A stretch of 64,000 nucleotides of DNA from Elusimicrobiaceae bacterium. Lineage in GTDB: Bacteria; Elusimicrobiota; Elusimicrobia; Elusimicrobiales; Elusimicrobiaceae. Where the stretch lies: NCBI GenBank assembly GCA_045593745.1, contig JAZNXF010000012.1:21575-85574 (forward strand). The letters run 5' to 3'. Shown here piece by piece: positions 3,630 through 59,350 of the stretch. Made by a program: the position numbers and the translations under genes. Position 1 is the stretch's first letter. Every line of letters starts with the position of its first letter. A model generated the notes under the pieces. It did no database searches and was not told where the DNA came from. It was given only the letters and a program-made list of their open reading frames with translations.

Positions 3630-3842
3630 TATAAGTCCCCCTTGGCTAAATTTTAGCATTTTATCAACGAATAAATAAACAACAACTTACCCTCCAAATT
3701 GGGCAAAAATGTGCAGGATTGCGCAAAAGTTTTAGTACAAAGTAGGAAGAAATTATGTAAAATAAAAAAGTAGCAAAAAAATTTATTCTGTTTTTGGAAT
3801 CCTATGAAGAATAGGAGAGGGTTTCGGGTTAAACCGAAAAAC

Positions 3843-4005
3843 GCTCTAGCCGCCAAAGACAACCAGTATAGACACAAAGCGAAAGGACTTCGAACCCTTT
3901 TGCTTTGTGTCGAATGTTTATCGTTTTGCTTTTGAACAAATGATAAATTACGGCTGTTGGTTGTTAGGTTCTGGCTAGAGCACTTGCACCTGACAGCCGT
4001 TTTTT
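3843..4005 (+). ncRNA. Candidate cis-regulatory structured leader RNA (attenuator/riboswitch-like), copy A
   Basis: GCTCTAGCC/GGCTAGAGC outer stem, GACACAAAGC/GCTTTGTGTC hairpin, GAATG (3912), second hairpin, TACGGCTGTT (3949), ACAGCCGT followed by a T-run (3993-4005). The same fold occurs before all four pilin genes. Confidence 0.8.
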
Positions 4006-4052
4006 ATGGGGTTTTGACAGATAAATTGAATTTAACGGTAAAGGAGTAATGT

Positions 4053-4724
4053 ATGCAACATAGAAATACCCGGCGGGGTTTTACGCAACAAGAAAAAGAG
4101 GCCGTTATCTGTTCCCCTTGTGGGGAAAGTGTCGCGCAAGCGACAAAAGAGGGGCAAAATAAGGAAAAATCCTTATGGCCCCTCCTACCCCGCCTAACGG
4201 CGGTACTCCCTCCACAAGGGCGGGAGATGTCCTGGGGTTTTACGCTTATTGAATTACTGGTAGTAGTGTTAATTATTGGTATTTTGGCGGCGGTGGCCCT
4301 GCCGCAGTACCAAAAGGCCGTGGAAAAAAGTAGGATTGCGGAGGTAAAAATAGCATTAGATACTTTGCAAAAAGCAGTAGATCTTTATTTGCTTGAAAAT
4401 GGTTATCCTTCATCGGGTATTGTCTATTTTGTAGGAGAATCCTCTGCAGAAGATGCTACAAATGTCTCGTTGGATTTGGATATTACCAAAAGTATGGTTT
4501 GTTATGCTCCAGAAGATCCTTTTTGTGTAACAGATCACTTTTCTTATGATGCTTACTGCGAACCTTGGGGGTGTATTGTGGGTGCGGGGGATATTGATGT
4601 AAAGAATGCTGAAGAGTATTTGCGTAGTGATTACGACCGATATCGTTTGAGGTCAACAAAAAGCGCAGATACGAATCAATGGGTTAGAGAATGTATAGAT
4701 TGCCCTTCTTATGTAGAATGGTAA
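4053..4724 (+). CDS. Type IV pilin (PilE-like) with extended leader
   Basis: G|[29 protein letters not shown]-methylation motif; AAGGAG RBS. Confidence 0.92.
4111..4227. repeat. Palindromic REP/MITE-like element inserted in frame in the pilin leader
   Basis: Multi-hairpin TTCCCC..GGGGAA / GAGGGGC..GCCCCTC / CTCCCT..AGGG architecture; flanked by the 12-bp direct repeat GGGGTTTTACGC (4075-4086, 4234-4245); related copy at 34475-34577. Confidence 0.75.
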
Positions 4725-19595: not shown

Positions 19596-19606
19596 TATAA
19601 TAAAAA

Positions 19607-19929
19607 TGGTAGCCAGATAACCGCTCCCGGCTAACTTCAGCGCAGGGGGAGGAACTTCCGGACTCCACAGGGCAGTATGCCACCTGAAAGGGTGGGCTGG
19701 CGTTTTTTCTTTTTTTCGCCAGACGGAAAGTGCCGCAGAAAATAAACCGCCCGCAAGGGTAAGGGTGAAAAGGTGCGGTAAGAGCGCACCGCGCGCAAGG
19801 TAACAAGCGTGGCAGGGTAAACCCCATACGGAGCAAGGCCAAGCCGGTCCACAGGTGCCCGCCTTCGTGACCAAGTAGGCCGCTTAGAGTAATGGTTATC
19901 CACGACAGAATCCGGGGTACCGGCTACCA
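19607..19929 (+). ncRNA. rnpB: RNase P RNA (type A)
   Basis: TGGTAGCC/GGCTACCA P1, GAGGAACTTCCGGACTCC, GGAAAGTGCCGCAGAAAA, GGTAAACCCC, GAGCAAG, ACAGAATCCGG. Confidence 0.93.
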
Positions 19930-19945
19930 CATTTTCTTCTTTTTC

Positions 19946-20260: not shown

Positions 20261-20410
20261 TGGCCCCATGTAAAATTAAATTATCCCCATTTTTTCTGAC
20301 TATTTATGGCGGGCTTTTTTTTCTTGTTAATTAGATAATTTTTTATTATACTATAGGTACAATTTGTTCTGTTTTTGGAACCGTTTAAGAAACGGAGTGC
20401 TTGAAAAAGT

Positions 20411-20564
20411 TCTTGTCTAGTCCAAAAATAGCCGACTTAGGTACAGCTGAAAACTATAGATTTGGCTGTGCCGAATGTTTTCCGTATCTGCCAGGCAGAT
20501 ATGGAAAACTACGGCTGTTATGGCTGGGACTCTAGACAAGACCTGTGCTGTATAGGCCGTTTTT
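20411..20564 (+). ncRNA. Candidate structured pilin-leader RNA, copy B
   Basis: TCTTGTCTAG/CTAGACAAGA outer stem, two hairpins separated by GAATG (20473), TACGGCTGTT (20510), GCCGTTTTT (20556). Confidence 0.8.
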
Positions 20565-20639
20565 GTTGGTTTCATAAGCAGAAGAATTGAACATATAGGT
20601 TGGGTGAAAACCCAACGTAAAAATAAGGAGAGTAAACTT

Positions 20640-21335
20640 ATGAACTACAAAAACACCCGGCGGGGAAAAACGCTTCATTTCAATACAGAAAAAAATATGG
20701 GATGTTACCGCTTCCCCCTAGAGGGGGAAGGTGGCCAAAGGCCGGATGAGGGGGAAAGTAATACAAAAGTTTTAGCCATTGGTCAACTAAGGATCCCCCT
20801 CACCTGCCCTACCGGGCATCCGCTCCCTCAAGGGAGAGAAAATGCACGCTCCGGGTTTACGCTTATTGAACTTTTGGTTGTTGTGCTTATTATCGGCATT
20901 TTGGCGGTGGTAGCGTTGCCGCAATACCAAAAAGCTGTCAAAAAGGCACGGGGCACAGAAGTATTAACGGCTCTAGATGCGTATGATAAAGCCATATCAT
21001 CCTATTATTTGACCCATGGTTTTTATGGCGGGGCCAGAGCCGATACATTAGATGTTCAGATGCCAATTTTGAAGCATTTTTTATATGCGTCTGTAGGCGG
21101 AGACAGAACGCCGGACTTTCAAGTAGGTAGCAATTTTCTCCAGGTAGGAACCGGAACATCTACACAGATATTGTTGGTAGAAAAAGGTACTACGTTAGGA
21201 GTATGGGCCGAGTGGGACAAAGGTTCACGGCCTCAGCGTTGGTGTTCGGACAATGGGAAAGATATTTCCAAAGAATGTGCTGCCTATTTTGGCCCCTGTA
21301 CATGGAACAGTATGTACAGGCGTTGCTACTTCTAA
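20640..21335 (+). CDS. Type IV pilin (PilE-like) with extended leader
   Basis: G|[24 protein letters not shown]; start at ATG 20640 after AAGGAG. Confidence 0.92.
   Translation: MNYKNTRRGKTLHFNTEKNMGCYRFPLEGEGGQRPDEGESNTKVLAIGQLRIPLTCPTGHPLPQGRENARSGFTLIELLVVVLIIGILAVVALPQYQKAVKKARGTEVLTALDAYDKAISSYYLTHGFYGGARADTLDVQMPILKHFLYASVGGDRTPDFQVGSNFLQVGTGTSTQILLVEKGTTLGVWAEWDKGSRPQRWCSDNGKDISKECAAYFGPCTWNSMYRRCYF
20711..20838. repeat. Palindromic element in frame in the pilin leader
   Basis: CTTCCCCCT-AG-AGGGGGAAG, TGAGGGGGA/TCCCCCTCA, CTCCCTCAAGGGAG; same architecture as 4111-4227. Confidence 0.7.
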
Positions 21336-32035: not shown

Positions 32036-34417
32036 ATGGTGTCTAAAGAATTAACCGAAGAACAACAAAAGGTTTTTGATGCGGTTATTAACAGCCAGAG
32101 CCCTTTTATTTTTATTCACGGAAAGGCCGGTACTGGTAAATCCTTTTTGGTGAAAAAAATCCAGCAACATTTTCATTGCCATATTTTGGTTCCCACCAAT
32201 ATGGCAAAATCCGTTTATTCTCATGATGTCAGTACCATACATTCCTTTTTTTCTGGAGAACTGGATGAGATTGAGAATGAATATCAAAATCCGTTTAATT
32301 ACAACGGCATCAAAAAGGGCCGGGTAAACCTTCAACATGTGGGACGTTTAATTTTGGATGAAATTTCTATGGTGCGGGCGGATTTGTTTGAAATGATGAA
32401 TAAAATCTGCCAGGTGGACAAAAGAAACAATGCCCCCTTTGGCGGCATACAAATTATCATTGTGGGGGATATGCTGCAACTGCCGCCGGTAGTGCAGGAA
32501 CCACCGGAAGGGGAAGAAAACGCGGTCAAGAAGTATTTGTTGGATACGTATGGCGGTATTTACTTTTTCAATAGTAAAGTAATACAAGAAAATTTAGACA
32601 AAATAGAGTTTTATGAACTAAAACAGTCCCAAAGACAAAAAGAGGATGCCGCTTACGAAAAATTATTAGATATACTGCGGGAACCCCAAGGGAATGAAAA
32701 CGCTTTGCGGGATGCGCTTGAAAAAATTAATAAACGGGTATGTCCTGCGACGGATATTCCAGCCCCCAACGAAGTTACGAGGATTGTTACCACCAATCAT
32801 GAGGTTGACAGAATCAACGCGGAACAATTAAGTGCTCTTGCGGGGGAAGAAAAAACTGCATTAGCCCACTTTGCAATTTACAAGAAAGATCACTCGCAAG
32901 AACTTCCTGAATTTGAGAAAATGCCCAATCCATACCTATTTGATGGAAAACCAGATCCTACCCAATATAATCCACAGGTTTATTATCCCTTGGATATCCC
33001 TTCTAAATTTACCCCGGTGCTAAAATATAAAATCGGTTCTAAAGTAATGTTTACCACAAATCATTATAAGAAGCAGGGAGTATATAATGGAGATTTTGGC
33101 ATAATCCAAGAAATCCCGGATAACTGCATCAAGGTAAAGCCGACTAAAAAAGATGGGGCAATTGACAGCATAGAAATCAAAAAGGAAACAGTCACACGTA
33201 AAGAAATAAAATACGACGAAAAAACTAAAAAATTAAAGGTGGGAAGAACCATTCAAGAAACGATGCAATATCCGCTTAAATCAGGTTATGCGTTCACTGT
33301 GCATAAATCACAAGGCCAGTCGTATGATAAAGTTGTATTAGATTTGGATAATGGGGCTATGTTCGCTTCTGGACAGACCTATGTGGCTTTGAGTAGGGCT
33401 AAAAGATTAGATGGGTTATACCTTACCAAACCTCTTACGGTGAGTGATTGCAGGGTAGATCCGCAATTAATTGGTTTTCTAAATCAAATGCGCAAGAAAA
33501 GCGAATTACCGGTTATTCCGGCTGAAATGTTGCTTGAGCGCGCGTTGGATGAATCGTGCAAAAAATTTAAAGATATAGTTTGTAGTAGTAAGTTGCCGCA
33601 AAGCGTCAAAGAGGATGTTTGCGCTCTGGTGCAGTATTATAATAATTCTTATGTAATTAGCCAATATCGGTTTGCAATGTCTGAGTTGGACCGTATTTTA
33701 TACCAAATTGAACCTTTTTGCACAGATATTAATTTTCTCAGACAACTCCATCAAGAGATACTAAAAGATGTAGAGGCAACCAAGGAATCTTGCGATAACA
33801 TGTTGCACAGAATAGGCAATCTTTGTCAGTTTGAGGTGTCGGGAAAATCAAACGAATTACTTCCAGTCGATCATCGTACAGTAATTGCCCAGCAAGAGGT
33901 TCCGTGGGCGCATGAGCAGATATTTGCGCATGCCGAAGAATACGGCTTTACCTATGAAAAACTGTTTGCACCATATCTTCAGGGATTTACAACAATCACT
34001 CTCAAAGAACCGTATCTGGAGCATGATTATCAATTTGAAAATTTGCAAGAATTTCTGGACTTGTTAGTTAAAATTAAAAACCCGGCTACTACACCGAGTT
34101 TGGAATTGGTAACGCTTCGTGTAAGATGGAATAGAGAGGAACAACAAAACCGTTTAAGTCCGCAAGAATGCATGAGCAAATTAAACAAGATTGAAAAATG
34201 TTATAGCCCAAAAATTAACTTTTTAGTTACGCATAAAGAGAAAATAGAATTGCATGACCGCGAAATCATAGCAGATACCGGTTGGAAAATAAAACTGGGC
34301 CGAGGATTGCATATTTGGAAGGAATCTAGGTATGACGAACGGAAACAGAATCAGGCCGATAGGCCCTGTTATGGCGGTTTTAGCATTATTTATTATAAAC
34401 CCCAGGATCTTGCTTGA
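32036..34417 (+). CDS. Pif1/RecD-like SF1 helicase with C-terminal MIT_C (PLD-like) domain
   Basis: GKAGTGKS, DEISM, GDMLQLPPV, AFTVHKSQGQS, YVALSRAK; C-terminal EPYL...HDREI..TGWKIKLGRGL. Confidence 0.8.
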   Translation: MVSKELTEEQQKVFDAVINSQSPFIFIHGKAGTGKSFLVKKIQQHFHCHILVPTNMAKSVYSHDVSTIHSFFSGELDEIENEYQNPFNYNGIKKGRVNLQHVGRLILDEISMVRADLFEMMNKICQVDKRNNAPFGGIQIIIVGDMLQLPPVVQEPPEGEENAVKKYLLDTYGGIYFFNSKVIQENLDKIEFYELKQSQRQKEDAAYEKLLDILREPQGNENALRDALEKINKRVCPATDIPAPNEVTRIVTTNHEVDRINAEQLSALAGEEKTALAHFAIYKKDHSQELPEFEKMPNPYLFDGKPDPTQYNPQVYYPLDIPSKFTPVLKYKIGSKVMFTTNHYKKQGVYNGDFGIIQEIPDNCIKVKPTKKDGAIDSIEIKKETVTRKEIKYDEKTKKLKVGRTIQETMQYPLKSGYAFTVHKSQGQSYDKVVLDLDNGAMFASGQTYVALSRAKRLDGLYLTKPLTVSDCRVDPQLIGFLNQMRKKSELPVIPAEMLLERALDESCKKFKDIVCSSKLPQSVKEDVCALVQYYNNSYVISQYRFAMSELDRILYQIEPFCTDINFLRQLHQEILKDVEATKESCDNMLHRIGNLCQFEVSGKSNELLPVDHRTVIAQQEVPWAHEQIFAHAEEYGFTYEKLFAPYLQGFTTITLKEPYLEHDYQFENLQEFLDLLVKIKNPATTPSLELVTLRVRWNREEQQNRLSPQECMSKLNKIEKCYSPKINFLVTHKEKIELHDREIIADTGWKIKLGRGLHIWKESRYDERKQNQADRPCYGGFSIIYYKPQDLA

Positions 34418-34474
34418 GAAACCCCTTATTGGACCTAATTGCCCAAAAAGTTGATATGTTAGGTTGGTTTTTTT

Positions 34475-34577
34475 GTCCCCTTTATGGGGAAAATGTCGCG
34501 TAAACGACAAAAAAAGGGGGGACGATGAAAACCTATTTATACCCGGTTGCGCCGTACTTCCCCCGCAAGGGGGGAAG
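34475..34577. repeat. Intergenic copy of the palindromic element found inside pilin A
   Basis: GTCCCCTTTATGGGGAAAATGTCGCGTAAACGACAAAA vs GTTCCCCTTGTGGGGAAAGTGTCGCGCAAGCGACAAAA. Confidence 0.75.
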
Positions 34578-34767
34578 AAAACAATACCAATGGGAAGCAG
34601 CCCATCTTTCAGACAGTATTACCAACAATTTTAAATATTAGTCCCAACATGTAGTTTATCTCTGGAAAAATATACTAAATTTGTTATAATTACAGTGTAA
34701 GTATAATACTTACGACAACTTAATCTGTTTTTGGCACTGTATAAAACCGGACGTATTGGCTACAATA

Positions 34768-34914
34768 CAGGCAATCAACCAAAACAGCCCATTAAAGCAT
34801 ACAGTTAAGGACCTCTAGAACCCTTGATTGTATGCTGAATGCTTGCCGCTTGCGGCGGGTTACGGCTGTTTATGTCGGGGTGTGATTGCCTGCCTGTCAT
34901 AAGGAGCCGTTTTT
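34768..34914 (+). ncRNA. Candidate structured pilin-leader RNA, copy D
   Basis: CAGGCAATCA/TGATTGCCTG outer stem, 15-bp hairpin, GAATG (34837), TACGGCTGTT (34861), AGCCGTTTTT (34905). Confidence 0.8.
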
Positions 34915-34940
34915 ATCAGGCCAAAACAAAGGAGACAATC

Positions 34941-35513
34941 ATGAAGAAACTGGCAATCAAACCTGCAAGCGGTTTTACCCTCATTGAACTGCTTGTTGTT
35001 GTACTTATCTTGGGGGTTTTGGCGGCGGTAGCACTGCCCCAATATACGAAAGTAGTAAAAAAATCCAGGGGGATTGAGGTGTTAGTGTCCTTAGATGCCT
35101 TGGACAAAGGGCTTACCGATTACTACTTGGAAAATGGTTCTTATATAGGTGTTACTCCGGCTTCATTGGATATCACTATTCCGGATATACATCATTTTAA
35201 GTATTTAGTAGGAACCGGCAGTAGGTATGAACAAGGTTTTTCCCAACCTTATGTGGATGCGTCAGCATCGGATAGTTATGTATATTTGCTATCACCAGAA
35301 AATATTTGGGTGATTGGTTCCTGGAAACAAGGCAAATTAAATTCTATATATTGTACGCCTTCGAGTCCAGGCGGTGTTCGCTTTTTTCAGCGAAACTCCT
35401 GCTCTGATTATTTTAATTGTGAGGCCACCCCATTGGTATATCACCCAGAAAGACAGACAGGATCCCTTCCTGACCCAGCTTATTATACCGGGGGAGCATG
35501 CTGGTTAAAATAA
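34941..35513 (+). CDS. Type IV pilin (PilE-like)
   Basis: MKKLAIKPASG|[24 protein letters not shown]; AAGGAG RBS. Confidence 0.92.
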   Translation: MKKLAIKPASGFTLIELLVVVLILGVLAAVALPQYTKVVKKSRGIEVLVSLDALDKGLTDYYLENGSYIGVTPASLDITIPDIHHFKYLVGTGSRYEQGFSQPYVDASASDSYVYLLSPENIWVIGSWKQGKLNSIYCTPSSPGGVRFFQRNSCSDYFNCEATPLVYHPERQTGSLPDPAYYTGGACWLK

Positions 35514-35932: not shown

Positions 35933-36886
35933 TTATAAGGGAATAGTTGGTTTAATATATTGATTATAAAGATCAATGTATTTTAAAGTGTTTGCTTCGC
36001 CAATTTTAATGTTTATTTGTTCAATATAAGAAATAAATTCGTCTAAATTCAAAAGGAGATAATTTTGACCGCAAAAATCACGCAGTTTCTTGACTAATCT
36101 TTTGTCATCAGATACAAAAATATCAATCACATCTGTTACGTAGGAAAATATAGAACTATCGTTCAATGGAGAAGATAGCTTATCTAATAATTTTGACAGG
36201 GGTAATGCCTGGTAGCCGGCATATTCAAGTATAAGATTTTTTGCCATATTTTGACTATTAACATCCTTTGCGCCATAAGCTTTTAGAAATTCATCGAATG
36301 ACGAAAATTGAGTGCTTTTTTTAATTTCTTTTTCTAAAAGCTGTAACGCTCCTTTAGTTGTTAAATTATTTAACTGCTTTGCATATAGTCGGGTTTGTTT
36401 TGTTAAAAAATTTGTATTTTGTTGTAGAGCAGTTACGATAGCTTTCGTATAGTCCCCCTGTTGCTTAATCAATTCTTTGAAAAACAAGGTTTCTTCCTTG
36501 GGAAGATTGTTATTTAGCAATGCTTGTGCATATTTTACAAGTTCTTGTTTTTGTTGTTCCCATCTGTTCATGAGAATAAAAGGATTGCGTCCTTTAAATA
36601 GTGTATAGTTTTTATCTGTTCTAATTAAATAATTCCCTTGTGTTATACTTTTAATACAGTTCAAATGTTGTTTCACAAATATATCTCGATACTTTCCTTT
36701 AATTTGAGAAGTTTCTAGAATGGTTGTTAAATTATATACGAATTTTATTTTGTTTCCGGCATGTATCATGTTAGCGAAGGTGACAATTTTAGAGAAATAC
36801 TCTCTTTTTTTCGGAGTATTAAGAGAGGACAGAAAACCGTATATATTTTGATCTAAATAAATAAATTTATACTTTGCGTTTGGCAT
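35933..36886 (-). CDS. Hypothetical protein, possible PIN-like nuclease
   Basis: N-terminal IYLDQN and C-terminal ND.......DIFVSDDKRL acidic motifs; very AT-rich. Confidence 0.5.
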   Translation of the reverse strand: MPNAKYKFIYLDQNIYGFLSSLNTPKKREYFSKIVTFANMIHAGNKIKFVYNLTTILETSQIKGKYRDIFVKQHLNCIKSITQGNYLIRTDKNYTLFKGRNPFILMNRWEQQKQELVKYAQALLNNNLPKEETLFFKELIKQQGDYTKAIVTALQQNTNFLTKQTRLYAKQLNNLTTKGALQLLEKEIKKSTQFSSFDEFLKAYGAKDVNSQNMAKNLILEYAGYQALPLSKLLDKLSSPLNDSSIFSYVTDVIDIFVSDDKRLVKKLRDFCGQNYLLLNLDEFISYIEQINIKIGEANTLKYIDLYNQYIKPTIPL

Positions 36887-36954
36887 ATATGAGTCTTAAA
36901 TTTCTTACAATATAATTATATTAAAATGGTTGTTGCGAAATAAGGAGAAATATT

Positions 36955-37575
36955 ATGGAACAAATATTTAAAATTGCCGGAGGGGTTCTTTTTAGTATAG
37001 GAAGTGCTAGTGGTATACTTTATGCTATTACCAAATGGTATGGTAATGTTATTGCGGATAAATTATCACAAAAATACTCTCATCAACTTTCTGAAGAATT
37101 AGAGAAATATAAAACTATTTTAAATAGGAAATTGTATGTTAATCAGAAACATTTTGATTTGGAATTATCAATTTACAAAGATTTAATGGGAGGGGTAATT
37201 GAGATGACAGAATCGTCATATTTATTATTTCCTCGTATGGATATGTTGCCTGCAGATAAAGATGCGGAAATAAAAATTTGGAAGTCTCGTTATGAGAAGG
37301 CTACAGAGCAGTTTAATGTTACATCGGAAGTTATATTTAAAAACGCACCGTTTATTGATAAGAAAATCTATAATGCAATTCTGGAATTAAGAAATAAGTG
37401 TCGAGGGCAAATTATTAGTTTTCAGAATTTCCGGATAGAACAAAATAACTATGGACATTTAGATAAAGAGAATGACAAGGTTTGGGGCGTATCGATGGAG
37501 ATAGTTGAAGATAGAAATAAATTAATTGAATGTATTCGAGCGTATTTAAGTAAGCAAGAACTTTTACTGGAATAG
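36955..37575 (+). CDS. Hypothetical protein with N-terminal TM helix
   Basis: 206-aa ORF, AAGGAG RBS, AT-rich. Confidence 0.65.
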   Translation: MEQIFKIAGGVLFSIGSASGILYAITKWYGNVIADKLSQKYSHQLSEELEKYKTILNRKLYVNQKHFDLELSIYKDLMGGVIEMTESSYLLFPRMDMLPADKDAEIKIWKSRYEKATEQFNVTSEVIFKNAPFIDKKIYNAILELRNKCRGQIISFQNFRIEQNNYGHLDKENDKVWGVSMEIVEDRNKLIECIRAYLSKQELLLE

Positions 37576-37676
37576 TGTCTTAAAACAGGGCGTTTTCGAA
37601 ATCTCGTGGCCTTATTTGTACTACGTAAATTGAACTACCGAGAAAATCTCGGTAGTTGCTGTAAAGGGACAAATCT

Positions 37677-38513
37677 TTACTTCTTTTTAATCTGTTTCTT
37701 GGGTGTAAAGTCCGGCAAGGAACTTTTGGAAGTAACCACCTTAGTTCCGGTGGCCTCTTCAAATTGTAAGCGCGCTTGTTTGGCGAGCTTGCCACCTTTG
37801 CGCCCGGCTACTTTATTCTCTTGCACGCCTTCGGTCTTGTCCTTTTCCGCAATTTGACGAGTGGATAACTCTGCCAACGCCGTAAAAAGTAATTCCGCCT
37901 CGCTCATGTGTTCACGCAAGTTTTCATGCTCTAACCCTTTTAACTTTTTGTGCTGTGCAACCGATAAATCGCTCCATTCTTGATGGATGACGTTTGTAAG
38001 CATGGCAAAATCGTCCGATTTAGTTACCCCATGCGCTTGCCAGTAGTCGGTCAGCTTATTGCGGGTTTCCTGCCCCATCATACGCTGTTGTATCCATTTT
38101 TGGCTGCGTCCTTGGGCTTTCCAATGGGAACGCGCGCGGTCTAATGCTTTGGAAGGATCTGCGGTCTCTTGGATGCGTTCATAACCCACTTTGGCTAGCC
38201 ACAGTTTAAACGGCTCGGCTTTGGGACTGGGGATGGACTGTATAAGACGTAAAAGTTGTTCCGGGGTGGCTACGTCCGTTAGGCGCATTTTGCCATCTGC
38301 GGCCATCATTTTCAAAGCGTGACAATTTGTCACGGTTTGGTTCCCTTCGGTTTTTAGACGTTGTTTTAATTTGCGCCAATAGGCCAGAGGGCTTTTGCTT
38401 TCGGTCAGCGCATAAATCACATCCACAATGGAAAAATACCACGTTTCGGTCTTTTCGTCATAGTGGCGGCGGATTTTAAAATCTTCAAAAATAGCAAGTG
38501 CTGATTTAGTCAT
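37677..38513 (-). CDS. Bro-N domain protein (phage antirepressor-like)
   Basis: WYFSIVDVI...YWRKLKQRL...LRLIQSIPSPKAEPFKLWLA. Confidence 0.85.
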   Translation of the reverse strand: MTKSALAIFEDFKIRRHYDEKTETWYFSIVDVIYALTESKSPLAYWRKLKQRLKTEGNQTVTNCHALKMMAADGKMRLTDVATPEQLLRLIQSIPSPKAEPFKLWLAKVGYERIQETADPSKALDRARSHWKAQGRSQKWIQQRMMGQETRNKLTDYWQAHGVTKSDDFAMLTNVIHQEWSDLSVAQHKKLKGLEHENLREHMSEAELLFTALAELSTRQIAEKDKTEGVQENKVAGRKGGKLAKQARLQFEEATGTKVVTSKSSLPDFTPKKQIKKK

Positions 38514-38522
38514 ATCGTCTCC

Positions 38523-39107
38523 TTAATTCATTCTGACAAGTTTGGCTAAAATTTGGACGGAATCGTCGGCCGGGAACGGTTCATACTTGGCCTTATTATC
38601 CGATACCAAGCGGTAGTCGGGACCGTTTTCGGTGTTATATTGTCCAAGGCGCTTAATTTTAAGCCCATCCTCGCGGCGACACAATACCACACTACCCACA
38701 GCGGGTAACTCGCTCGTTTTACGGAACATCAGCATATCCCCATCACTAATAGTCGGCTCCATAGAATCGCCCTTGGCCTTAATAAAAAATAAATCCTGCG
38801 TAGGAGTCGGCAAAAACTTAGTGGGCATATTCACATAGTCCACAATGTTTTCCTCGGCAAAAATGTCCGTATCCCCGCATTGCGCAAATCCGTAAAAGGG
38901 GATGGGGGTAAACTCATCCACGGGCCTATGCGTGGCAATCAGCGCATGCCCTTTTCGCTCTAAAAAGTTCTCTTTAATCAGCTTGCGGATATGCACGTGC
39001 ACGGTGCTGACCGATTTCAAGCCAACCGCTTTAGCCAGTTCTGCCAAAGTGATTTGCGGGTTTTGTTGGACGAGTTCTAAAATTTGTTTTTGTTTTGCCG
39101 AAAGCAT
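38523..39107 (-). CDS. LexA/S24-family transcriptional repressor
   Basis: N-terminal wHTH, CG cleavage-site variant, KAKGDSM Ser motif and IKRL Lys; start at ATG 39107 after GGAG. Confidence 0.88.
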   Translation of the reverse strand: MLSAKQKQILELVQQNPQITLAELAKAVGLKSVSTVHVHIRKLIKENFLERKGHALIATHRPVDEFTPIPFYGFAQCGDTDIFAEENIVDYVNMPTKFLPTPTQDLFFIKAKGDSMEPTISDGDMLMFRKTSELPAVGSVVLCRREDGLKIKRLGQYNTENGPDYRLVSDNKAKYEPFPADDSVQILAKLVRMN

Positions 39108-39126
39108 AGTGTTCTCCAATACAAAC

Positions 39127-39206
39127 AGTATAACTCTTTTTACAAAAAGAGTCAATTTCTATTAAAAATAGAAAAAGTTGACATAAAATAGAAAATATGT
39201 TTTAAT
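39127..39206. promoter_or_regulatory. Divergent sigma70 promoters with operator-like palindromes
   Basis: Minus strand: TTGACT-17-TATACT (39155-39127). Plus strand: TTGACA-17-TTTAAT (39178-39206). Palindromes at 39133-39152 and 39156-39174. Confidence 0.7.
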
Positions 39207-56470: not shown

Positions 56471-56543
56471 TGGACCGGACAGGACTTGAACCTGTGACCT
56501 TCCGCGTGTAAGGCGGACGCTCTACCAACTAAGCTACCGATCC
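56471..56543 (-). tRNA. tRNA-Val (anticodon TAC), CCA not encoded
   Basis: GGATCGG TAGCTTAGTTGGTAGAGC G TCCGC CTTACAC GCGGA AGGTC ACAGG TTCAAGT CCTGT CCGGTCC A. Confidence 0.96.
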
Positions 56544-58887: not shown

Positions 58888-58922
58888 ATTTCCTCCTTCA
58901 TTCTGTTGGGGATATAGACAAT

Positions 58923-59070
58923 AAAAACGGCTATAATGTCGCCTGGGAGTATCAGCAACCAAACGCCAAACAGCCGTAGTTCCGCGCAAAACGGAACATT
59001 AAACAGAAAATATCTCCGGAGCAACCCTTCGGTATTTTCTGTCTTAACGACTGTTTTGGGGCTGATACTC
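58923..59070 (-). ncRNA. Candidate structured pilin-leader RNA, copy C
   Basis: On the minus strand: GAGTATCAGC/GCTGATACTC outer stem, hairpin, TAATG, hairpin, CTACGGCTGTTT, TAGCCGTTTTT. Confidence 0.8.
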
Positions 59071-59350
59071 GTTTTAATTGTCTAAAACTTGCCTGCTAAC
59101 GCAGGAACCCAAAACAGAATAAATTTTTTATTACCTTTTTATTCTACATAATTTCTGTTTCTTTTAATAGGTATTTGGGAAAAAACGTAAGTACAAAACA
59201 AAACTTGACAAAACTAACAAAATTTGCTAACTTAAATACACAAGGCAATCAAACAAGCCGCAACCCACCTTTCAAAAGCACATTTTTGCGGCATCCAAAA
59301 CAAAAAAATCCCGCCGGATAACCGGCAGGATACAAAATGAATGTAGTATC

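Follow-up and report, generated by a model that had tools for sequence, protein, structure and literature searches.

The 64,000-nt stretch of Elusimicrobiaceae DNA analysed here (the window) holds only four GFTLIELL prepilin-type genes, and the region upstream of one of them, copy D, raises the question of whether the gene is preceded by a structured leader RNA, where this leader begins and how it might control the gene. The product of the gene matches the Pfam family N_methyl (E = 1.5e-7), i.e., the prepilin N-terminal methylation motif. An initial annotation of the locus had proposed a leader RNA composed of the helices P1a, P1b, P2 and P3, a GAATG segment and a terminator arm, and all the helices that it listed are present when read in the sequence. 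P2 is indeed a stem of 15 bp with 2 G.U pairs, its start having been placed at most 1 nt off; the terminator arm AGCCGT and the T-run ending 26 nt before the ATG are where they had been reported, as are the TATAAT hexamers upstream, the first of which a promoter scan called as TGGAAA-16-TATAAT with a TG extension. Folding of positions 34760-34920 with RNAfold recovered P1a, P1b, P2 and P3 in the minimum free energy structure (-63.9 kcal/mol, z = -5.5), an energy that 0 of 200 shuffles equalled. The part of the leader that had been described therefore stands, yet its full extent had been missed: the real start lies ~45 nt further upstream and takes in a segment, termed X, and two small hairpins (Table 1). 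The evidence thus supports regarding the initial interpretation as incomplete, not wrong.

Table 1. Features of the copy D leader and of the three further leader copies, in window coordinates
Feature	Position	Strand	Remarks
Copy D candidate promoter region	34685-34707	+	TATAAT hexamers at 34685-34690 and 34702-34707
Segment X, CTGTTTTTGG, proposed anti-antiterminator (segment 1)	34725-34734	+	Complementary to the P1b 5' strand
Copy D P0a hairpin	~34737-34751	+	Fold of copy D; weaker than P0b
Copy D P0b hairpin	34753-34768	+	GTATTG-GCTA-CAATAC; fold of copy D
P1a 5' arm, CAGGCAATCA	34768-34777	+	10 bp with 34883-34892
P1b 5' strand, CCAAAACAGCC (attenuator segment 2)	34779-34789	+	Conserved anchor CCAAAAACAGCC; alternative partners X or 34862-34871; P1b helix of copy D is AAACAGCC (34782-34789) with GGCTGTTT (34864-34871)
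P2 hairpin	34796-34836	+	15-bp stem, AGCATACAGTTAAGG (34796-34810) with CCTTGATTGTATGCT (34822-34836), 2 G.U; 11-nt loop ACCTCTAGAAC at 34811-34821, palindrome TCTAGA at 34814-34819
J2/3, GAATG	34837-34841	+	A34839 (third base) pairs across the junction with U34861
P3 hairpin	34841-34860	+	CTTGCCG/CGGCGGG with CTTG loop; stem 34842-34859 plus G.U closing pair; fold
ACGGCTGTTT, P1b 3' strand and terminator 5' arm (attenuator segment 3)	34862-34871	+	Within TTACGGCTGTTT (34860-34871); partners 34782-34789 (ON fold) or 34905-34910 (OFF fold)
P1a 3' arm, TGATTGCCTG	34883-34892	+	Inside the terminator-hairpin loop
Terminator 3' arm, CCTGTCAT..AGCCGT (segment 4), and U-run	34893-34914	+	AGCCGT at 34905-34910; TTTTT at 34910-34914
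Shine-Dalgarno sequence AGGAG	34930-34934	+	
Downstream gene of copy D	34941-35513	+	ATG 34941 to stop 35513; 190-aa prepilin-type protein; ORF list
Copy A leader	3788-4006	+	X 3788-3797; P2 loop ACTTCGAAC; R1 112.5 bits; pilin-like gene ATG 4054
Copy B leader	20369-20566	+	X 20369-20378; P2 loop AACTATAGA; R1 103.9 bits; pilin-like gene ATG 20641
Copy C leader	58921-59117	-	X CTGTTTTGGG 59117-59108, compensating partner CCCAAAACAG; R1 84.3 bits; precedes a minus-strand pilin-like gene; P2 cap not palindromic

The leader is not confined to copy D. A degenerate pattern derived from the four window copies was scanned over a collection of species-representative genomes, matching at least 109 loci, and about 100 of those listed belong to Elusimicrobiaceae or Elusimicrobium metagenome-assembled genomes (MAGs); some 8 matches in other phyla were set aside as chance, since the rest of the architecture is missing there. 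The MAGs that carry the leader come from the rumen, from other mammalian guts and from insect guts. A covariance model (R1) was then trained on 107 instances, including the 4 of the window; of its 121 real hits, spread over 100 loci, about 19 do not fit the seed pattern, and its E-values are rough given a shortened calibration. The seed pattern itself prescribes AATGYT, TACGGCTGTT and GCCGTTTT, so that to find these blocks invariant in the seed would be circular as evidence, and it is the ~19 copies found by the model only that give a less biased view of the conserved blocks. Within the window R1 has exactly four matches (84-112 bits, the next best scoring 16 bits), and these precede its four prepilin-type genes and nothing else, which argues that the leader is more than a chance resemblance.

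Known RNA families do not account for these sequences. Searching the whole window with Rfam 15 at gathering thresholds returned only RNase P and one tRNA, and no riboswitch or leader family, T-box and both c-di-GMP classes included; at E <= 10, positions 34600-35000 gave only five chance-level matches to unrelated families (E 1.2-9). No description of the leader was found in the full-text literature on riboswitches, structured RNA or pilins of Elusimicrobia, and the motif is absent from a collection of viral contigs. Among sequencing runs, the region was seen in no RNA run, only in DNA metagenomes of ruminant and wildlife guts (word share <=0.18), and for the rumen relative L008 a single metatranscriptome run holds a 230-nt contig that lies within the pilin coding region only and is uninformative on the leader. 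Copy D is thus a member of a previously uncatalogued family of ~200-nt 5' leader RNAs of gut Elusimicrobiaceae.

The proposal of a structured leader RNA before the pilin gene is borne out by the pattern of substitutions in this family, P2 and P3 covarying strongly. In the model-based alignment of P1b, P2 and P3, 93.7% of the cells are paired, as compared to 79.1% in shuffles and 33-52% when partners are slid; compensatory cells number 587 (140 +/- 14 in shuffles, with 0 of 500 shuffles reaching the observed value), and the covariation score is 0.521 versus 0.239 in shuffles. Compensatory changes were found at 24 of the 33 pairs overall, including all 11 core pairs of P2 and 8 of the 9 pairs of P3. 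P1a, for its part, has no conserved sequence: the 15 nt that precede the CCAAAAACAGC anchor pair with the leader's own 3' tail, forming an ungapped helix of 10.0 bp on average with that tail versus 5.7 bp with swapped tails (95th percentile 8). Its arms differ wholly between copies and each fits its own partner, as the annotated P1a pairing would have it. In addition, G.U outnumbers A.C 436 to 68 at paired positions (6.4-fold), indicating that selection acts on the structure of the sense-strand RNA rather than on the DNA.

The junction of the three helices is bridged by a further pair, between the third base of GAAUG and the U of CUACGG, which is A-U in 104 leaders, G-C in 10 (for example GAGUG...CCACGG) and G.U in 10, with zero mismatches in 124 leaders. 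We considered whether the AUG of GAAUG could serve as a start codon, and rejected this in view of the variants GAACG and AAGCG and the absence of a preceding Shine-Dalgarno sequence. As in riboswitches generally, then, the 5' leader harbors a conserved, covarying, aptamer-like fold.

The upstream extension of the leader is conserved as well. Of 98 leaders, 72 carry segment X unchanged and 96 keep at least 8 of its 10 bases, at a distance of 43-68 nt upstream from the P1b 5' strand; a conserved block, AAAATTTNAT, comes before X, with -10-like hexamers further upstream, which places X near the 5' end of the transcript. Between X and P1a, two small hairpins are found in 109 of 115 leaders, and GNRA makes up 47 of the 94 four-nucleotide loops of these hairpins. 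X is the perfect complement of CCAAAAACAG, the P1b 5' strand, and 5 of the 10 pairs between them have changed on both sides in some leaders: the outer pair changes from G-C to A-U in 9 leaders, X3/P8 from G-C to A-U in 3, X8/P3 from U-A to G-C in 3 (window copy C among them, CTGTTTTGGG with CCCAAAACAG) and X9/P2 from G-C to U-A in 2. These changes support an RNA helix between X and the P1b 5' strand. A leader peptide over X was considered and rejected: neither in the consensus nor in the examples read is there a conserved ATG or GTG with a Shine-Dalgarno sequence in X or in the 40 nt upstream of it.

The P1b 5' strand can therefore pair with X or with the P1b 3' strand, and the latter also forms the 5' arm of the terminator. 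This overlap is the basis of the structural switch that had been suggested for copy D, and the comparison of leaders upholds it: ACGGCUGUU is common to P1b and to the terminator, such that the expression platform excludes P1, as in riboswitches. The OFF fold is backed by covariation in the X helix and in the distal terminator stem, the terminator also being predicted by RNAalifold, and the ON fold by that in P1a. For copy D, constrained folding yields an interrupted terminator stem of 16 bp (34862-34910) followed by UUUUU (34910-34914), the arrangement of an intrinsic terminator, at whose U-run we infer that transcription ends. A simple terminator scanner made no call here, its loop limit being 8 nt and the loop of this hairpin 13 nt.

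On these grounds we consider it probable that the leader is a cis-acting transcription-attenuation switch of four segments, belonging to an uncatalogued family and bearing a P2 loop of the kissing, dimerization initiation site (DIS)-like type. Segment 1 would be X and segment 2 the P1b 5' strand; the P1b 3' strand, doubling as the 5' arm of the terminator, would be segment 3, and the 3' arm of the terminator segment 4. In the OFF state, pairing of segments 1 and 2 would leave ACGGCUGUU... free to enter the long 3:4 terminator hairpin, and with the U-run behind it RNA polymerase would stop 26 nt before the start codon. In the ON state, segments 2 and 3, together with the 10-bp, copy-specific P1a clamp, would form the closing helices of a three-way junction whose other arms are P2 and P3, sequestering the terminator 5' arm and allowing transcription to proceed into the gene. 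As the 1:2 helix would form first, the choice would be made kinetically. X leaves 2-3 nt of the P1b 5' strand (CCG) uncovered beside the junction, and judging by this arrangement segment 3 could begin strand invasion at the overhang.

The energies of the two folds fit such a switch. Across 96 leaders the mean energy is -79.0 kcal/mol when P1b is forced (ON fold) and -82.9 kcal/mol when the terminator is forced (OFF fold), a difference of 3.9 +/- 4.8 kcal/mol, with the ON fold being the more stable in 29% of them. The X helix formed in 97% of the OFF folds, and when transcripts were cut off immediately before segment 3 it likewise formed in 97%; taken with the energies, this suggests a switch that is near iso-energetic and kinetically decided. 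The two folds, their mutual exclusivity and their near-equal energies all emerge from the comparative analysis. Copy D is an atypical member in this respect. Its P1b 5' strand offers X four A's instead of five, which leaves the X helix bulged and weak (-8.2 kcal/mol versus -12.4 for P1b), and its terminator-forced fold, at -70.3 kcal/mol with 16 bp, compares with -75.4 for the P1 fold. With the ON fold ahead by 2.5-5 kcal/mol, copy D may, as far as folding energies tell, be leakier than its paralogues, or constitutively ON.

With two folds so closely balanced, we infer that an effector decides between them, most likely by stabilizing the junction/P1 fold and so tipping the balance toward ON. 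Given the conserved joining strands of the junction, P1 may be stabilized by a ligand or by a protein. Conservation of ACGGCUGUU and CCAAAAACAG, on the other hand, is no evidence of a ligand pocket, as the two or three pairing partners that each of them has could explain much of it. Within the attenuation mechanism, a small molecule acting with riboswitch ON logic is our tentative first choice; an RNA-binding protein is a weaker possibility, and self-association via the palindromic P2 loop is doubtful, as is purely kinetic or NTP-dependent control.

The genes that the leader precedes bear on this choice. All 4 pilin-like genes of the window carry it, and elsewhere the downstream ORFs are mostly prepilin-type, with G- or A-FTLIELL. 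The exceptions that Pfam recognizes are glycosyltransferases of the GT2 and GT8 families, a polysaccharide pyruvyl transferase, an EcoRI-like adenine methylase, a nuclease lipoprotein of the SNase type, a membrane protein with DUF805 and a protein one domain of which resembles Gp10_C; two further non-pilin ORFs have no Pfam match. Altogether the leader stands before more than 100 pilin or cell-surface genes in gut Elusimicrobia. The regulon is thus largely a cell-surface set, from which no ligand suggests itself, and the leader looks like a common control element for pilin-like and other surface genes. Similar gene sets are phase-variable in other host-associated bacteria.

A mixed surface-gene regulon is what one would expect under a protein regulator, and protein-dependent antitermination, in which an RNA-binding protein at the junction, at X or at the P2 cap selects the fold (compare Bgl/Sac, PyrR, TRAP and ANTAR), is a possibility to which we give limited credence. 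The two exclusive folds suit it just as well as they suit a riboswitch, and with junction strands as short as ~4 nt (J2/3) and 2 nt (J3/1), a classical ligand pocket is not obvious. However, in an unsystematic look at the neighboring genes no candidate protein gene was consistently adjacent, known antiterminator motifs have no match here among the Rfam models, and the variability of the P2 palindromes argues against sequence-specific recognition of that loop.

These palindromes are a feature of the family as a whole. It had been noted that the P2 cap AAGGAC...GAACCCTT is shared by copies D and A (3892-3908 in the latter); it is, as one instance of the palindromic loops that occur throughout the family. 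A Watson-Crick palindrome of 6 nt is present in 74.5% of 106 P2 loops, as compared to 5.3% of composition-matched shuffles, and one of at least 4 nt in 96% of them versus 39% of shuffles (and in 16 of the 19 copies found by the model only). In a larger set, 89 of 125 P2 loops hold a 6-nt palindrome, the commonest geometry being a 9-nt loop of 2+6+1 (50 of 125). Such a terminal loop, with a central self-complementary 6-mer and unpaired flanks, is of the DIS type. At least 14 palindromes occur (TAATTA, TCATGA, TTATAA, TTCGAA, TTGCAA, TCTAGA, CTATAG, GTGCAC, CTCGAG, TGTACA, CAGCTG, AGCT, GATC and GGCC), interrelated through symmetric double substitutions, and a MAG carries 3-7 kinds of them; in the window, copy A has TTCGAA, copy B CTATAG and copy D TCTAGA, with none in copy C. 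A palindrome is likewise missing in ~6% of leaders. We looked for an intramolecular partner of the P2 palindrome across leader, UTR and early coding region: a leader's own hexamer recurs elsewhere 21 times in 89 leaders, versus 14 +/- 3.3 for other palindromes, a marginal and not a systematic excess, on which ground such a partner was set aside as the main explanation. Since the palindrome is too short to pair within its own loop and there is no systematic second site, intermolecular loop-loop pairing is the simplest reading, and, judging by covariation, leaders whose P2 loops carry one and the same palindrome would most likely kiss in pairs.

From this it is a further, and in our judgment unlikely, step to a self-sensing riboregulator, in which same-loop leaders, terminated or nascent, would kiss and the dimer, rather than or together with a metabolite, would bias the ON/OFF decision. 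Such a regulator would fit the way in which self-complementarity is kept through symmetric double changes (e.g., UAAUUA, UCAUGA, UUAUAA, UUCGAA, UUGCAA, UCUAGA), the DIS-like 2+6+1 geometry, the absence of a systematic second loop site in the same leader and the presence of several palindromes per genome, three of them in the window. Its basis, however, is purely one of sequence; UAAUUA, the commonest palindrome, has A-U pairs only, from which a weak kissing complex is expected, some members such as copy C have no palindrome at all, and the route from a P2 kiss to the P1/terminator decision is not evident. Were it true, control of each pilin or surface-gene paralogue (or loop class) would rest on how concentrated its own leader RNA is, which could give RNA-level feedback or a bistable selection from the dozens of surface-gene paralogues.

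Two other explanations do without attenuation. The terminated leader could itself be a stable, trans-acting small RNA, its place before pilin genes being secondary, and the promoter-proximal start, the compact structure, the intrinsic terminator and the many copies per genome would all suit such an RNA. We hold this to be improbable, as the orientation is constant, the leader lies 25-60 nt upstream of an ORF with a Shine-Dalgarno sequence when there is no insert, and covariation preserves the ON fold (P1a), which a pure small RNA would not need. Least credible of all is a DNA-level inverton in which X, the two P1b strands and the terminator 3' arm are recombination sites of a phase-variable promoter, as in gut Bacteroides: although the fourfold recurrence of a core sequence among these segments, both direct and inverted, and a downstream set (pilins, GT2/GT8, methylase, nuclease) resembling phase-variable sets elsewhere would suit it, the strand-specific excess of G.U over A.C places selection at the RNA level, P1a, P2 and P3 keep their pairing while their sequence changes freely, the U-run and Shine-Dalgarno spacing fit a terminator, and the 121 hits share one architecture without a single inverted-orientation variant.

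Attenuation thus remains the reading that we prefer, and it gives the leader a wider interest. Elusimicrobia are common and poorly understood gut bacteria whose genomes are crowded with pilin-like genes, and the leader offers a handle on the timing of surface remodelling in them. It represents a new class of orphan riboswitch or attenuator: over 120 examples have been sequenced, covariation is unusually clear in the ON as well as in the OFF fold, and R1 can be used to annotate it in Elusimicrobiota genomes and in metagenomes.

How does the leader compare with known systems? It would work like a pbuE-type ON riboswitch and like a trp-type attenuator and is a member of neither, having no Rfam match and no leader peptide over segment 1. 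With the pbuE (ydhL) adenine riboswitch it shares a P1/P2/P3 three-way junction with conserved joining strands, and a P1 3' strand that doubles as the terminator 5' arm, such that stabilized P1 leads to read-through. Unlike pbuE, its P1 is much longer (~20 bp), it has X and two 5' hairpins in addition, its P2 loop is self-complementary rather than docking on P3, and it matches no riboswitch in Rfam. The trp and his attenuators show the same alternation of a 1:2 plus 3:4 terminator state with a 2:3 antiterminator, segment 1 being made first and favoring termination. They differ in that the consensus near X (AAAATTTNAT-CTGTTTTTGG) offers neither a start codon nor a Shine-Dalgarno sequence for a leader peptide, and in that the leader inserts a 90-nt three-way-junction domain between segments 2 and 3 and adds a copy-specific P1a clamp in the antiterminated state.

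As regards pilin control, C. difficile reportedly carries a c-di-GMP class II riboswitch upstream of pilA1, and GEMM-I is said to precede pilus genes; the pilA1 riboswitch is the functionally nearest precedent. The parallel lies in a terminator-bearing leader before a type IV pilin gene, in antitermination turning the pilin on and in a surface and adhesion regulon, whereas the c-di-GMP-I and -II models gave no hit in 34600-35000 at E <= 10 and their conserved nucleotides are unrelated to those of the leader.

The P2 loop, finally, recalls the DIS of HIV-1 SL1, which, as generally described, likewise presents on a long stem a 9-nt loop with a central self-complementary 6-mer, unpaired by 2 nt on the 5' side and 1 nt on the 3' side, and whose palindromes also differ between lineages. 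The leader, in contrast, is a bacterial cis-regulatory RNA, many of its palindromes are A/U-rich and its dimer is putative, so that the likeness is one of analogy and not of homology. It nonetheless places a DIS-like self-complementary loop in a bacterial cis-regulatory RNA, which, if it does dimerize, would be a new way of coupling RNA concentration to termination.

Directly 5' of X, the leader segment near the transcript's 5' end that is complementary to the 5' strand of P1b, we observed a conserved A-rich/T-rich block, AAAATTTNAT, which lies at 34716-34724 in copy D and at the equivalent place in ~115 leaders. Across these ~115 leaders, a T is found at -5 in 95%, and no pairing partner for the block was evident. 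It could represent either the first stretch to be transcribed or a signal close to the promoter.

We also found that the prepilin-type genes downstream of leader copies A and B (pilins A and B) carry inserts that preserve the reading frame and separate the start codon/'NTRRG' from the GFTLIELL cleavage motif; both inserts are abundant in GC hairpins. The pilin A insert is bounded by a direct repeat, GGGGTTTTACGC (4075-4086 and 4234-4245), and a partial insert copy (45 nt at 82% identity) is present at 34474-34518, upstream of the promoter of copy D. Among the matches listed from other genomes, about one third of the leader-associated G-FTLIELL pilin genes are longer by 100-300 nt at this position, and these extra segments fall into at least three recurring sequence types. 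The inserts may represent a structured repeat, or MITE-like element, that is dispersed through the genome and has a hot spot where the prepilin leader peptide is encoded.

Features of the window outside the leaders
Feature	Position	Strand	Size or score	Basis
Pilin A insert	4087-4245		159 nt
Bacterial class A RNase P RNA	19605-19935	+	211 bits
Pilin B insert	about 20665-20850		about 180 nt
Helicase-fusion gene	32036-34417	+	793 aa
Bro-N-like protein	37677-38513	-		by eye only
LexA/S24-type repressor	38523-39155	-		by eye only
tRNA	56471-56543	-	74 bits

Immediately 5' of copy D is a gene whose product joins a PIF1-like helicase to a MIT_C/phospholipase-D-like C-terminal domain, an unusual fusion that might belong to a defence system or a mobile element. 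Downstream of pilin D lie four ORFs (35933-39155), the first two of which, 35933-36886 (-) and 36955-37575 (+), gave no Pfam match, whereas the last two resemble, on inspection, a Bro-N-like protein and a LexA/S24-type repressor. The region may represent the remains of a prophage or a cluster of defence genes. Elsewhere in the window, the RNase P RNA gene sits just upstream of leader copy B.

In other genomes, the same leader also precedes non-pilin genes (loci L004, L011, L020, L030, L042, L044, L082 and L095), whose products include a polysaccharide pyruvyl transferase, GT2, GT8, an SNase-type nuclease lipoprotein and DUF805, as well as an EcoRI-like adenine methylase and a Gp10_C-like protein. 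This set is similar to the surface and contingency genes that undergo phase variation in other bacteria living with a host.
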